In this document: positions 1 through 8,790 of the stretch, in pieces
Layout of the letters: every line of letters begins with the position of its first letter
How positions within the stretch are numbered: position 1 is the first letter of the stretch
DNA from: a virus
Lineage: Duplodnaviria; Heunggongvirae; Uroviricota; Caudoviricetes
IMG/VR virus record: IMGVR_UViG_2609459819_000002
Coordinates: 1-20,937 of that record
Direction: 5' to 3' (one strand)
Length of the DNA stretch: 20,937 nt
Made by a program: the position numbers and the translations under genes
Notes under the pieces: generated by a model
Database searches by the model: none
What the model was told of the DNA's origin: nothing
What the model saw: the letters and a program-made list of their open reading frames with translations, nothing else

Positions 1-549
1 TCAGCTAGCTGGAAACTTTTTATACAGAGTTGAGAGCCCTACTCCATACGTTTTTGATACGCTTTGTCGTGATTCACCGGTTGCCATCCGCTCCCCCATT
101 TCCCGCCATTGCTCATCCGTGAACTTAGGCCTGCGACCACCAACTCGCCCTTTTGCCCTGGCTACGGCCAGCCCTGCTAAGGTACGTTCGCTATTAAGAT
201 CAGATTCATATTGTGCTGCGGAAAGGATGTTACGAAAGTTATAGCGGCCGCTGGCTGTTTTGAGATCCACGCCATCGGTAATACTGCGGAAGTTGATACC
301 CTTTTCCTGTAACTGCTGGAACATCAACAGCGCATGCAGAACGTTGCGGCCTATCCTGTCCAGCTTCCAGACCACCAGTTCATCCCCCGGCTGCATAGTG
401 GCGATCAGCCGTTTTAGAACCGGCCGATTCGATTTCCTCCCGCTGGCATGCTCTTCAAAAATTTTCTCACAACCCGCTGACTTGAGCGCCGTTAGTTGCA
501 ATTCAGTGTCCTGGTGGTTTGTTGATACTCGGGCATAACCGTAAATCAT
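1..549 (-). CDS. Serine recombinase, DNA invertase (Hin/Gin/Pin family)
   Basis: 183 aa from ATG at 547-549 (MIYGYARVSTNHQ...), with the catalytic Ser in the N-terminal RVST motif and a C-terminal HTH (GLSTLYKKFPAS). AGGAGA RBS 6 nt upstream. Sits next to tfa and a tail-fibre fragment, as in Mu G, P1 C and e14 P inversion systems. Confidence 0.85.
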   Translation of the reverse strand: MIYGYARVSTNHQDTELQLTALKSAGCEKIFEEHASGRKSNRPVLKRLIATMQPGDELVVWKLDRIGRNVLHALLMFQQLQEKGINFRSITDGVDLKTASGRYNFRNILSAAQYESDLNSERTLAGLAVARAKGRVGGRRPKFTDEQWREMGERMATGESRQSVSKTYGVGLSTLYKKFPAS

Positions 550-4876: not shown

Positions 4877-5407
4877 TTAGCGAGTCAGAAACAACGAATC
4901 TTTATACTTTTGCTGTTGTTCATTTAAATACTTAGCTGTTTCATCGCTGGCAAATGGAAATATTACCGTATTTTTAGGCATGGTAATTTCTTTTTTGTCC
5001 AGCGTCAGAGTAAACATAGGAACATACTGAGCAGAGTAACGCACCGCAGAAACGAGCTCTAGTTTAGACTCTTCAATAACACTTAAATTATCCAGGCTAA
5101 CTTTCTCTTCATCTTTTTTCTTTGACGCATTTAAAGTTTTTATTACTTTATTTAATTTCTCCTGAAAATCCTCCTTAAAGTTTTCAGGATTGCCGTCGAC
5201 AACAAGAATCTGTTCACCCTGATTATCTGGAAAAATAATCTTTGCACTTATCAATTTATTTTCTTTATAAACATCACCAAGTTTTATGGCTCCTCCAGAT
5301 AACTGAATAATATGTTCATCTTTAAAGGAGATGTTGCCAGAGATTATGAGAGATGAAAAAACAGCCGCTGCTCCAAGAATTACACTTGCTGTGATATAGC
5401 CTTTCAT
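4877..5407 (-). CDS. Hypothetical signal-anchored or secreted protein (AT-rich moron in the tail operon)
   Basis: 176 aa; hydrophobic N-terminus (MKGYITASVILGAAAVFSSLIISG) followed by a K/E-rich soluble part. Markedly AT-rich compared with the flanking tail genes; has its own candidate promoter and a terminator. Confidence 0.6.
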   Translation of the reverse strand: MKGYITASVILGAAAVFSSLIISGNISFKDEHIIQLSGGAIKLGDVYKENKLISAKIIFPDNQGEQILVVDGNPENFKEDFQEKLNKVIKTLNASKKKDEEKVSLDNLSVIEESKLELVSAVRYSAQYVPMFTLTLDKKEITMPKNTVIFPFASDETAKYLNEQQQKYKDSLFLTR

Positions 5408-5498: not shown

Positions 5499-7331
5499 CT
5501 ACCAAAATCGGGTATAGCCAACATCGTGATTTATATCAATGCCACTGGAGCGTGTTTCCGTAACCCGCATACCTGGTGGCATATTTATAAATGATACCTT
5601 GATCTCACCATCAACTTTTGGCGCAGAAGCTTTGTTAATCATGAAGGGATTCGGGCCTGTGGCATCGGAGGCGTTGTTTGACTGAGCCAGATCTACCGCC
5701 GGATAAGGTGTGTATCCCCGCGCCGGTATTCCCGTCCCATAAGCATCATAAGCACTCGCGCCCCACTGCGCAGAGTTAATGGCATCGACCGTGTCACCGG
5801 AACTGTCGGTAAACCACTCAATAATTGGCTTCAGCTTATCCCACATATCCTGAAACCACTTAACAACCGGTCCCCAGTTATTGATCACCATCCCCAGCGG
5901 CGACCAGGCAAAAACCTTCTTCAGAAGTTCCCAGCCAGCCTCAAAATAAGGACCAATGGTTTCCCAGAGCTTCTTAAAATAAGGTCCGACAACATCCCAG
6001 TTAGTGATAATTAATCCCGCAGCCAGAGCAATCGCCGTCGCAATCATGCCAATCGGCGTCATCGACATAATCCTGCTGACAATACTGATGGCACTGCCCA
6101 CGCCCATCAATCCCAGTTTCAGAATCGCAAGACCGGCAGCAAGCCCGACGACGCCGCGAATAACCCGGGGATTTTCATCCGCAAACTTCGTGAATTTCTC
6201 CCCCAACTCCCCCAGCCACTGCGTGATATTTTTGGCGTCACCAGAAAATGCGCCGCCAATAGCTGCAAGACCGTTAGTTGCGGTCCCCGTCATTGCCTCC
6301 CACAGGTTGGACAGCGTACCAAGCTGAGCCTGAACACGTTTATTCAGGCTGGCCTGTTTATTCATCTTCTGCTGGATCTGATCGTAGCCATCCTTTCCTT
6401 TATCGATTAGTGCATTGACCACCTGAAGGGTTTCGGCATCATCACCAAATATTGCCTTAAGTACGCCTGTTCGCTTAACGTCGGTCAGTTTTCGCAGCTT
6501 TGCCAGTTGCCTGAACATGTTATCAAGACCGCCAAAACTCCCTTTGCCGTCAGTAAAATCGAGCTGTACCCCGAGTTTCTGGCGGGCCATGATTTTATTG
6601 ACGTCCCTGATTTTCTTAACGCTTAATCCGGACTGGATAACTTTTCGCAGGGCGTTACCTGCCGACTCCCCGTTCATCCCCATCTGATCCATCATGACGC
6701 TGATGGGGGCAAGGCTCTGTGCAGCCTGAAGACCGTCCTTGTTCACCATCTTCAGAACAGAGCTGGTTTTAGTGAAGAAGGACAACATGTTGGTATCGTC
6801 AACGCCCAGATAAAACGCCTTCTGGATAGTGTCGAACAGCCCCATCATGTCTTCTGACGCCGTTCCGGTAGCATCCTGCATCTTTGCGGCAAACTCGGCA
6901 GCCGCTTCCGGTGTTTTTTTCAGTTGTACCGCAAGATAAGCTGTCGCTTTACCCACACCGCCAAGAATGTTTTCTGCCGGGATCCCCTGACGCACCAGCA
7001 TCTGCATCATGTTCTGGAAATCAGCCGTTGTACCGGGTAGCTGATTACCCAGGCCAATAGCCAGTTTATTGATGTCCTGAAAGCTCTTTCCAACCTCGCC
7101 GTTCGCATCCATCATGGCGACTTTCAGCCCGGTGGCGGCGTTTTCCTGATCGGCATAAGATTTCAGGGAAAGCGTCAGACCCGCTGCCAGTCCGCCACCA
7201 AGCGCTAGCCCACCCTGTGACGCTTCTTCCGCCTGGCGTTTAAATCCCCGGATTTTCTTTTGCATTTTCGACAGCGCGGGAGAAAGCCTGTCGACACCGG
7301 TGATCAACGCCTTAAGCTCAAATTCCGCCAT
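5499..7331 (-). CDS. Tail tape measure protein
   Basis: 610 aa; Gly/Ala-rich and hydrophobic central segments and a Trp-rich C-terminal part (WDVVGPYFKKLWETIGPYFEAGWELLKKVFAWSPLG). Positioned after chaperone-like ORFs and before baseplate genes. Confidence 0.8.
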   Translation of the reverse strand: MAEFELKALITGVDRLSPALSKMQKKIRGFKRQAEEASQGGLALGGGLAAGLTLSLKSYADQENAATGLKVAMMDANGEVGKSFQDINKLAIGLGNQLPGTTADFQNMMQMLVRQGIPAENILGGVGKATAYLAVQLKKTPEAAAEFAAKMQDATGTASEDMMGLFDTIQKAFYLGVDDTNMLSFFTKTSSVLKMVNKDGLQAAQSLAPISVMMDQMGMNGESAGNALRKVIQSGLSVKKIRDVNKIMARQKLGVQLDFTDGKGSFGGLDNMFRQLAKLRKLTDVKRTGVLKAIFGDDAETLQVVNALIDKGKDGYDQIQQKMNKQASLNKRVQAQLGTLSNLWEAMTGTATNGLAAIGGAFSGDAKNITQWLGELGEKFTKFADENPRVIRGVVGLAAGLAILKLGLMGVGSAISIVSRIMSMTPIGMIATAIALAAGLIITNWDVVGPYFKKLWETIGPYFEAGWELLKKVFAWSPLGMVINNWGPVVKWFQDMWDKLKPIIEWFTDSSGDTVDAINSAQWGASAYDAYGTGIPARGYTPYPAVDLAQSNNASDATGPNPFMINKASAPKVDGEIKVSFINMPPGMRVTETRSSGIDINHDVGYTRFW

Positions 7332-7506
7332 GTGTGCGTTTCTCCTGCTCTATCCTGTTTGCCTGACTGACCAGCAAGGGAATTTCACTGATCGGCATAT
7401 TCAGCAATTCGAAGGGATTAATGCGCCAGTAGCTGGCGCAGTCAAAGAAGCGATCAGTGAGGTATTCAGCCGTCAGGCCTGGAGGAAAAAACCAGCCACA
7501 AGCCAC
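7318..7506 (-). CDS. Tail assembly chaperone, -1 frameshift extension ORF (T-like)
   Basis: 62-aa ORF in the -1 frame relative to the ORF at 7473..7679, overlapping it by 34 nt and the tape measure start by 14 nt. Confidence 0.4.
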   Translation of the reverse strand: MACGWFFPPGLTAEYLTDRFFDCASYWRINPFELLNMPISEIPLLVSQANRIEQEKRTHGGI

Positions 7507-7679
7507 GCCGCTGCATTCAGGTCTGCCGGAGACATCTGGTCGACAGAGCTTTGCGGCACTTTCGCCAGCCGCACAATGTATTTCGACACCACATGCGCCA
7601 GAAGTCTGACGGACTCATCCTGATTCATCTGGTAGGGATAGCTCCAGCGACCGCTGGTATCGTTCATCTCTGTCACCAT
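7473..7679 (-). CDS. Tail assembly chaperone (G-like), possibly N-terminally truncated
   Basis: 68-aa ORF immediately upstream of the tape measure gene, containing an in-frame slippery heptamer near its 3' end. Confidence 0.4.
7485..7491 (-). other. Candidate -1 programmed frameshift slippery heptamer (T_TTT_TTC)
   Basis: On the minus strand GGT TTT TTC is in the zero frame of the 7473..7679 ORF, 12 nt before its stop; the -1 frame continues into 7318..7506. Confidence 0.35.
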
Positions 7680-8241
7680 CCTCCGGACGGTTCATGTTTG
7701 AGGCGTTAACCTCAATCCCGAACGCTTCCGTCAGCATGGGTGTGCGTTTACACATCAGTCTTGCCGGACGAAAGACTTCCCATGCCTGTTTCTCCGTCGT
7801 GGCACCGGAATACACTTCCGCGCCGAACTCGTTATCACAGGCAAAACAATACAGGGCGACACCGGCAGAGATTGCCGATTTGCCGTTCTTACGGGGGATT
7901 TCGGTATACACCTCACGGAAGCGGCGCAGCCGGGAGCCTTTATTGACCCAGCCAAACGCGCAGCAGATCACAAAGAGCTGCCACGGCTCCAGCGTGATGG
8001 GCATCCTCTTGAATGCCCACTCACCCTTGGTGTGCGGCAACAGCTGAATAAATTTGGCGGCCCGTTCAGCCAGATCCTTGTCGAAGCGGTAACGAAACGA
8101 CTTACTTTTTTCCGCCATCAGGTCATCAAGATGGCGCTGGCAGGCCTGAATCACAAACTGGCAGGCCACAATCTTTCCGCGCACGACATCCCGGGCATAC
8201 TGATTGGCAGCATTTACGTTGGGGTAAGATTTCCGGCTCAT
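7615..8241 (-). pseudogene. Terminase large subunit, N-terminal fragment (truncated by deletion)
   Basis: Only 208 codons; Walker A-like PRKNGKS present. The frame ends in a non-terminase-looking tail and is followed within 1 kb by the tape measure gene; portal, protease, capsid, sheath and tube genes are absent. Confidence 0.7.
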
Positions 8242-8254
8242 GATTCGATGATTT

Positions 8255-8740
8255 TCAGATTGTCAGAAACGGGTTAGTGGCTTTCTTCTTCCCCGCCAGG
8301 CCAATCAGACGCTGGCGGCTGCTGGGGTCGAGTCCGAGCATTGCCCCCGTGCTGCTCATCTCGGACTCCTGTTCTTTTTTGGCGGTCAGCTCCGGATTTT
8401 TGACCATGCCGCCCATTGCACCGGTGATGGTGTTACCCTGTCTGGCAATATTTTTCACGGCACGTCGCCAGAACTCATAGGCCACACACCACCGCTCAAG
8501 TACCGCCAGGTCAGTCACGCACAGCAGGCCCTGACCGCAGAGTTCTTTGGTTGTCAGTTGCCACATGATCGTGGCGAGAGGGAGATCTTCTTCAGCGAAC
8601 CACTCCGGTGGCTCAACACCTTTGATGGGTGTAAAAACAGGTTCATCTTTATTCAGGGCTCGCTTGCCGGGGTTTCCGGCCAGCGCCTTGCGCGCCGTTG
8701 GCTTGGGGCGACGCCCGGAACGCCCCGCCGTTCCAGCCAT
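8255..8740 (-). CDS. Terminase small subunit (P27 family)
   Basis: 161 aa from ATG at 8738-8740 ([18 protein letters not shown]...), AGGAG RBS upstream. The track start at 8749 is a GTG. Confidence 0.8.
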
Positions 8741-8790
8741 ATGCGGCACTCCTGGTTAAATTTCATTTTTCGCGGGTATAAAAAAACGAT

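Follow-up and report, generated by a model that had tools for sequence, protein, structure and literature searches.

The 20,937-nucleotide stretch of DNA analysed here (the window) appears, by its sequence, to be an ordinary decayed, or cryptic, SfV-like prophage of Escherichia coli, and its late operon carries a compound deletion scar in which the first third of the large terminase gene is joined, through a short relic of the tail sheath gene, to the 3' part of the tail chaperone gene. We hold it very probable that the scar arose by illegitimate recombination at short homologies, that it has no function and that the element yields no particles. The kind of event is already known, namely routine prophage decay. 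A head-module deletion truncating terL beside the chaperone and tape measure genes had been proposed in the first-pass annotation, and base-level comparison with phage SfV and with the prophage of E. coli S51 bears it out.

An SfV-like prophage at thrW

Phages of the SfV group integrate at thrW beside proA and package their DNA from a cos site (PMC3851460, PMC3636060). The window shows this SfV-type integration at tRNA-Thr thrW adjacent to proA: an intact integrase gene encoded in the element (18316-19479) is followed by the gene for tRNA-Thr(CGT), thrW (19494-19569), and then by proA (19684-20937). The proA-thrW host flank matches many E. coli genomes at 100% identity, and the int/xis region is 97% identical to SfV by blastn. 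At its other end the window stops at a Pin-type invertase gene, also encoded in the element (1-546), short of the far end of the prophage, and the searches reported here cover the 20.9-kb window. The pin gene belongs to a left-end block of fibre, tfa and pin genes (1-1712); apart from this block, the genes of the window are ordinary SfV-like prophage genes or cargo (emrE and an esterase), with the late genes on the minus strand.

Across the HNH-cos-terS-terL' and chaperone'-tape measure-N-P-gp45 stretches, the window shows 95-98% nucleotide identity to SfV, SfI, SfII, SfIV and intact S51-type prophages, and it has in common with the SfV group and S51 the thrW/proA site, the integrase and the cos-type packaging module (PMC3851460, PMC3636060). 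Those phages and prophages are complete and produce virions, whereas the window is without 8.3-8.6 kb of the late operon, gp47 and gp48, and the immunity and replication genes. As in a cryptic prophage, essential genes have been lost or truncated while what remains is colinear with, and highly identical to, a functional phage; terL, the chaperone gene and gp46 are truncated, and the early region has been replaced.

The packaging module itself has the arrangement HNH-cos-terS(P27)-terL, with terL present only as a 189-codon stub. The HNH endonuclease gene (8866..9216, minus strand), upstream of cos and terS, is intact, as is the gene for the small terminase subunit, terS, of the P27 family (8255..8740, minus strand). 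The cos region (8800..8815) is retained, since it is at 8807/8808 that the two termini of the SfV virion DNA (37074/1) meet.

Two joints and a sheath relic in the late operon

Compared by blastn with SfV (NC_003444), the late region resolves into three colinear pieces. Window 7676-8807 corresponds to SfV 1124-1 (terS and the 5' part of terL), window 7638-7678 to SfV 8269-8229, which lies inside the tail sheath gene, and window 5505-7648 to SfV 11600-9458 (the 3' part of the chaperone gene and the tape measure gene). The same three pieces recur against the intact prophage of E. coli S51, at the matching thrW/proA site and in the matching orientation, and the flanks and relic are 97-98% identical and colinear both to SfV and to the S51 prophage.

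The first junction, J1 (7676..7678, minus strand), is a 3-bp microhomology, TGG, between terL (SfV 1122-1124) and the sheath gene (SfV 8229-8231), and it reads CCGGAGGA, then TGG at 7678-7676, then TGACAGAG. The tail sheath relic that begins there (7638..7678, minus strand) comprises 41 bp from codons 240-253, 35 bp of them unique to the relic and 3 bp shared at each end, and matches both SfV and S51 at 40/41 positions. At the second junction, J2 (7638..7640, minus strand), the relic meets chaperone codon 35 over the microhomology TAT; the sequence runs CGCTGGAGC, then TAT at 7640-7638, then CCCTACC. This TAT sits inside an imperfect repeat, GCTGGAGCTAT in the sheath gene and GCTGGGGTAT in the chaperone gene, which can be described as GCTGGRG(C)TAT. 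Against S51 and SfV the J2 microhomology measures 3 bp; a lost chaperone allele of the GGC type, a variant that occurs in IMG/VR, would extend it to as much as 5 bp. Its length is uncertain because the true parental alleles are gone. Read base by base, neither J1 nor J2 contains foreign bases.

The first-pass annotation had pictured a single deletion joining terL to the chaperone and tape measure genes, with its junction somewhere in 7680-7720. The deletion stands against both SfV and S51, but the single junction gives way to two with the 41-bp relic between them, and the interval was slightly misplaced, as the terL breakpoint at 7676-7678 falls 2 bp outside it and the other junction lies at 7638-7640. 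The short repeats that it had suggested looking for at the junction exist at both joints, TGG at J1 and TAT at J2, 3 bp each.

We propose that RecA-independent illegitimate recombination, acting at very short homologies, would have removed two adjacent blocks from an ancestor with a full late operon (HNH-cos-terS-terL-portal-protease-capsid-connectors-sheath-tube-chaperone-tape measure). The first block, which ran from terL codon 190 to sheath codon 240 and measured about 7.36 kb, would have been joined at TGG, and the second, spanning 1.20 kb between sheath codon 254 and chaperone codon 34, at TAT, leaving the 41-bp sheath island between them; these are the deleted intervals that comparison with intact relatives, as the first-pass annotation advised, delimits. 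We lean towards one compound event, by serial template switching or by end-joining with a retained patch, over two successive deletions, because two independent endpoints 35 bp apart are improbable: with random endpoints in a remnant of about 25 kb, such proximity is expected by chance in well under 1% of cases. No intermediate carrying J1 alone or J2 alone was found in the GTDB representatives, the JGI metagenomes or the genomes and phages searched by BLAST.

A mobile element or a site-specific recombinase could also delete such a block, through IS-mediated adjacent deletion or through Pin or Int acting at secondary sites, and the element does encode a Pin-type invertase and an integrase, while relatives at the thrW locus carry IS elements. 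This origin is nonetheless exceedingly unlikely: both joints are seamless, and a hix/gix-like core is lacking around 7638-7678; moreover, there is no IS sequence, terminal repeat or target duplication at either junction, and the partners share TGG and TAT only. Deletion mediated by Pin in particular was rejected, as the junctions have no hix/gix-like core.

As a separate observation, three of the four parental breakpoints fall within 0-6 nt on the 3' side of GCTGG, as do 3% of all positions, and one of them reads GCTGGTGA. With regard to a Chi/RecBCD effect this stands as a remark only, as the orientations misfit a simple Chi model and the GCTGG motif is part of the microhomologies themselves.

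Losses and remnants

The window is missing 7,355 bp and 1,198 bp relative to S51, and 7,107 bp and 1,198 bp relative to SfV, a total late-operon loss of about 8.3-8.6 kb. On the terL side this removed terL codons 190-577, ymfR, the portal, prohead protease and major capsid genes and a 66-aa ORF; in the middle, the genes for the head-tail connector, head closure, neck protein, tail terminator and a DUF2635 protein; and on the tail side, the sheath gene except codons 240-253, the tube gene and chaperone codons 1-34. When 25 late proteins of the S51 prophage were used as tblastn queries against the whole 20.9-kb window, matches were obtained for HNH, terS, the terL stub, the C-terminus of the chaperone, the tape measure, a 176-aa ORF, N, P, gp45 and the first part of gp46. 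The portal, protease, major capsid, connector, head-closure, tail-terminator and tube proteins had no match anywhere in the window, nor had gp47, gp48 or the S51-type fibre protein. In all, 13 head and tail-shaft proteins are undetectable in the window by tblastn, bar the 13-codon relic of the sheath, so that the head, connector, sheath and tube genes are missing as had been claimed from the sequence alone. The window does not hold a complete HK97-like head module together with a Mu-like contractile tail module.

What remains of terL is an ORF (7615..8241, minus strand) of 189 native SfV-type codons, followed by 19 out-of-frame codons and a stop, with a product of 208 aa. Aligned by BLASTP with SfV TerL (577 aa), the stub is colinear, gap-free and 98% identical up to residue 189, where the homology ends. 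The Pfam TerL_ATPase domain is recognized on stub residues 86-170, covering profile positions 1-83 of 178 only. The Walker A motif PRKNGKS can be read from the sequence at stub residues 116-122, and the stub is without Walker B (VVDEYHE, about residues 205-211 in the intact protein) and without the whole nuclease half. Because both are absent, the stub would be unable to power packaging or to cut DNA, and we predict that it is dead, with neither productive ATP hydrolysis nor DNA cleavage.

These measurements agree closely with what the first-pass annotation had stated, namely a terL frame with Walker A that ends at 208 codons, about 190 of them native, and some 900 bp between the terL and tape measure starts. 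The alignment to a full-length terminase that it proposed places the end of homology at residue 189, short of the ORF end, and the distance from the terL start at 8241 to the tape measure start at 7331 is 910 bp. The outcome that it had named as contradicting its reading, homology running to the end of the ORF with a nuclease half and head genes elsewhere, was not seen within the window by BLASTP or tblastn. Its description of terL as fused onto the chaperone gene is correct at the DNA level but not as an in-frame fusion: the terL frame crosses the relic into the chaperone gene out of frame, runs for 19 codons and stops at 7615.

It is the relic that is fused in frame to the chaperone gene, in a chimeric 68-codon ORF (7473..7679, minus strand) made of 13 sheath codons and chaperone codons 35-89, both in their native frames. 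Its product matches Phage_TAC_7 over profile positions 39-78 of 79 only, and is therefore a chaperone without its N-terminus. This chimera is present in RefSeq as WP_050488381.1, a 'phage tail assembly protein', and also as WP_251983600.1, and is called at 64-68 aa. The -1 frame extension of the chaperone gene, of the G/GT-like kind (7318..7506, minus strand), is intact and colinear with S51 and ends 11 nt into the tape measure gene, and a slippery heptamer, T TTT TTC, can be read intact at 7491-7485. The tail tape measure gene (5499..7331, minus strand) is full length, encoding 610 aa with 98.7% identity to S51.

Two further lesions lie outside the scar. The gp46 gene breaks off at 1713-1716, about 50 codons in, where the C-terminal part of a fibre gene takes over; gp47 and gp48 are not present. 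Between ybcN and Dam/TraR, 2.3 kb containing emrE and a BD-FAE esterase gene take the place of early genes that measure about 9.7 kb (repressor, cro, O, P and exo/bet/gam). The Q gene, the holin-endolysin-Rz cassette and Bor/Iss are intact in the window, and no gtr genes lie within it. On this gene content, the element should be unable to make virions on its own and should likewise be non-inducible: particles would be impossible because there is no capsid, connector, sheath or tube, gp46 is truncated, and gp47, gp48 and the immunity and replication genes are missing, the baseplate and early-region lesions strengthening the case.

R-type tailocins likewise have no head genes and keep tail genes and a lysis cassette, but a contractile particle cannot do without sheath, tube and baseplate wedge genes, and the window is missing these. 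It therefore does not match an R-type tailocin, in which sheath, tube and baseplate are intact and head genes absent; here the sheath, the tube, gp47 and gp48 are all absent.

Carriers, sister prophages and the question of function

In an exact look-up, the 208-aa stub turned up in Logan SRA assemblies and in one ENA metagenome, on at least 15 contigs in all. Ten of these loci, one per sample, were fetched from nine Logan SRA run assemblies and one ENA metagenome assembly, and the 61-nt double junction is identical in 10/10. Neither 5,426 complete E. coli genomes nor 50,697 phage records contain the junction. Exact patterns for the 61-mer, for J1 only and for J2 only had no match in GTDB species representatives or JGI metagenomes, and BLAST with a 141-nt junction query returned no genome or phage with more than one segment contiguous. 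The absence of the junction from all four of these collections is what could speak for an assembly or chimera artefact of one sequence. We give that reading next to no credence, as the identical double junction in independent assemblies from different samples refutes it and the chimeric ORF is present in RefSeq.

Most carrier loci match the window at about 99.98% identity. One (L013), at 99.0%, has an SfV-type terS 3' end, another (L006) keeps exo/bet/gam/O/P, and a third (L007) has a larger early deletion, from Dam to holin, and an acyltransferase gene in place of pin. Because the carriers share the scar yet differ in the early region, the scar is older than those differences; it is passed on within an E. 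coli lineage, and elsewhere the remnant continues to change.

Persistence of the scar in at least 10 samples while other parts change could also be taken as a sign of selection. The element would then be functional, either as a helper-dependent satellite that uses cos, HNH and terS, or through TerS and the TerL stub poisoning the packaging of a superinfecting SfV-like phage, and the intact cos, HNH, terS and integrase, together with a stub that retains its N-terminal region and Walker A, are compatible with this. We nevertheless consider it distinctly improbable. All retained pieces are 97-99% identical and colinear to an ordinary intact prophage, the truncated terL runs out of frame, the chaperone and gp46 survive as useless fragments, and a PADLOC scan of the terL stub returned no match. 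Hallmarks of a satellite, such as its own replicase or primase or capsid-redirecting genes, were not seen in the window, which also does not show the compact dedicated architecture, with its own replication and helper-manipulating genes, of PICI or P4-like satellites. With carriers about 99.98% identical, the persistence may simply reflect recent common ancestry.

Several sister prophages of E. coli lack the stretch that separates terL, or a gene before it, from the tail genes, with short-homology joints of 1-9 bp. In NWU_1, terL codon ~179 is fused in frame to tape measure codon ~66 at a 4-bp microhomology, giving a product of 722 aa that carries the annotation of a tape measure protein. In KFu022, tfa comes immediately after a complete terL, which is 100% identical to the window stub over the compared stretch. 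In S1, which has the proA flank of the window and the right-hand neighbours of L007, lysozyme is joined to the fibre gene, and in H3 a DUF968 gene is joined to the chaperone gene. Each of these has its own breakpoints and a simple single joint, unlike the compound scar with its 41-bp island, which occurs in the window type only.

Another parallel is e14 of E. coli K-12, which is related to SfV and SfI (PMC3636060). It shares the SfV-like late-gene lineage and has a terminase broken by deletion (ymfN, annotated as 'chimeric replication protein/phage terminase', and the aaaE pseudogene); fibre, tfa and Pin are kept and the head and tail-shaft genes are absent, and it carries a portal fragment, beeE, and a baseplate (gp47) pseudogene, jayE. 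Unlike the window, e14 lies at icd rather than thrW, has the 3' part of terL but not the 5' part, and keeps gp47'/gp48 while losing the tape measure, N, P and gp45, the opposite of the window on both counts, so its junctions are different events. Judged from their breakpoints, e14 and the deletions of NWU_1, KFu022, S1 and H3 represent independent losses of the same block. Incomplete prophages lose packaging and structural genes preferentially (PMC7744054), and the window scar and the deletions of its relatives fit this published pattern.

Across these prophages some endpoints are reused: the chaperone site in J2 of the window and in H3, and the fibre site in the gp46'/fibre joint of the window and in S1/L058. 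Both sites read GGG^TATC in the intact genes, which was noticed post hoc under a ranking that favoured such coincidences. The idea of an EcoRV site at the fibre junction, which reads GATATC in the window and in S1, was discarded, as the intact fibre gene reads GTATCG. Scanning IMG/VR for a non-G base before TATCCC returned only intact chaperone alleles with wobble changes, and the fibre pattern returned the S1-type junction only. If the chaperone gene carries GGT, a known wobble allele, the joint in H3 becomes an ordinary 9-bp direct repeat, which weakens the idea of a GGG^TATC hotspot. It is, in our view, very unlikely that the scar is anything other than inert, whether as a preferred GGG^TATC break or template-switch site driving decay, or as a cos-HNH-TerS unit with a Walker-A-only TerL stub that blocks SfV-like packaging.

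For annotation, the 'terminase large subunit' of 208 aa and the 'phage tail assembly protein' of 64-68 aa are deletion fragments, and the prophage should be scored as defective; beyond this the finding has little import. The locus is a clean, base-pair-resolved case of stepwise prophage decay, with one compound scar common to isolates that later diverged in the early region and sister prophages that carry independent deletions.

Chaperone slippery site and sequence context of the double junction

The double junction consists of the terL/sheath joint J1 (7676-7678, TGG) and the joint J2 (7638-7640, TAT) between the sheath relic and the tail assembly chaperone gene. Although codons 1-34 of the chaperone are gone, its canonical heptamer for -1 slippage, T TTT TTC (7485-7491, minus strand), and the extension ORF downstream of that heptamer (7318-7506, minus strand) are both preserved intact. 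Parental breakpoints of J1 and J2 lie at 11164, 11124 and 9935 of S51, the intact E. coli prophage L004. A GCTGG pentamer is found 0-6 nt 5' of three of the four parental breakpoints, versus about 3% of late-operon positions, and the sheath-left breakpoint, GCTGGTGA, matches Chi at 7 of 8 positions; both features were noticed post hoc. Their orientation is at odds with a simple RecBCD/Chi model.

Deletion scars in the window and in related prophages

The window carries a third deletion scar on the minus strand, where gp46 (1681-1866) is truncated after about 50 codons and is followed by the C-terminal part of a tail fibre gene (1083-1751). The joint lies at about 1713-1716 with a microhomology of TA, and gp47 and gp48 are missing. 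In E. coli S1 (L017) and the IMG/VR locus L058, a truncated lysozyme gene is joined at the identical fibre nucleotide (TATCGGG). Further along, in the stretch at about 700-736, homology to L007 (another double-junction carrier), S1 and the related E. coli prophage KFu022 ends at 736, 16 nt short of the tfa stop codon, beyond which those three carry an acyltransferase. A Pin/Hin-type invertase gene (1-546, minus strand) ends exactly at the window edge; between tfa and pin, a hix-like half-site, TTTAAACC, was found, but no full hix site.

Related prophages carry deletions of their own. E. coli NWU_1 (L003) has an in-frame fusion at 6052-8220 from about codon 179 of terL to about codon 66 of the tape-measure gene, with a 4-bp microhomology; this deletion is an independent event, and RefSeq labels its 722-aa chimera merely "phage tail tape measure protein". 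In the e14-like remnant of E. coli H3 (L005, 4981-5041), a truncated DUF968 gene is joined to the chaperone gene; given the GGT wobble allele, which is observed in IMG/VR, this joint becomes a perfect 9-bp direct repeat, GCTGGGTTA. Compared with window positions 7638-7648, the H3 joint has the motif GCTGGGGTATCCC in common with J2.

Cargo, inserts and terS types

Cargo at 14827-17090, namely a BD-FAE/alpha-beta hydrolase, lipoprotein-like (15085-16128, plus strand), and an EmrE-type SMR transporter (16187-16573, minus strand), stands in place of the early region (repressor, cro, O, P, exo/bet/gam). O, P and exo/bet/gam are retained in L006, another carrier of the head deletion. Between Q and holin, on the opposite strand, lies a DUF3800 gene (11522-12325, plus strand, about 38% GC) with a match (E = 6.5e-35) to PDC-M04A, which PADLOC lists as a candidate defence family; S51 carries this gene too.

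A 665-bp insert between the tape-measure and DNA-circulation (N) genes houses a 176-aa ORF (4877-5407, minus strand, about 40% GC) whose product has a hydrophobic segment near its N-terminus and no match in Pfam or PADLOC. Present in S51 and NWU_1 and absent from SfV, with exact copies of its product on at least 1000 contigs, it looks like a moron.

An 8-bp indel close to the terS 3' end (8260-8267) separates two terS types: 13 bp lie between terS and terL in the window and KFu022, and the two genes overlap by ATGA in SfV and L013. Because L013 carries the identical double junction on an SfV-type terS background, a later recombination with another SfV-like prophage is suggested.
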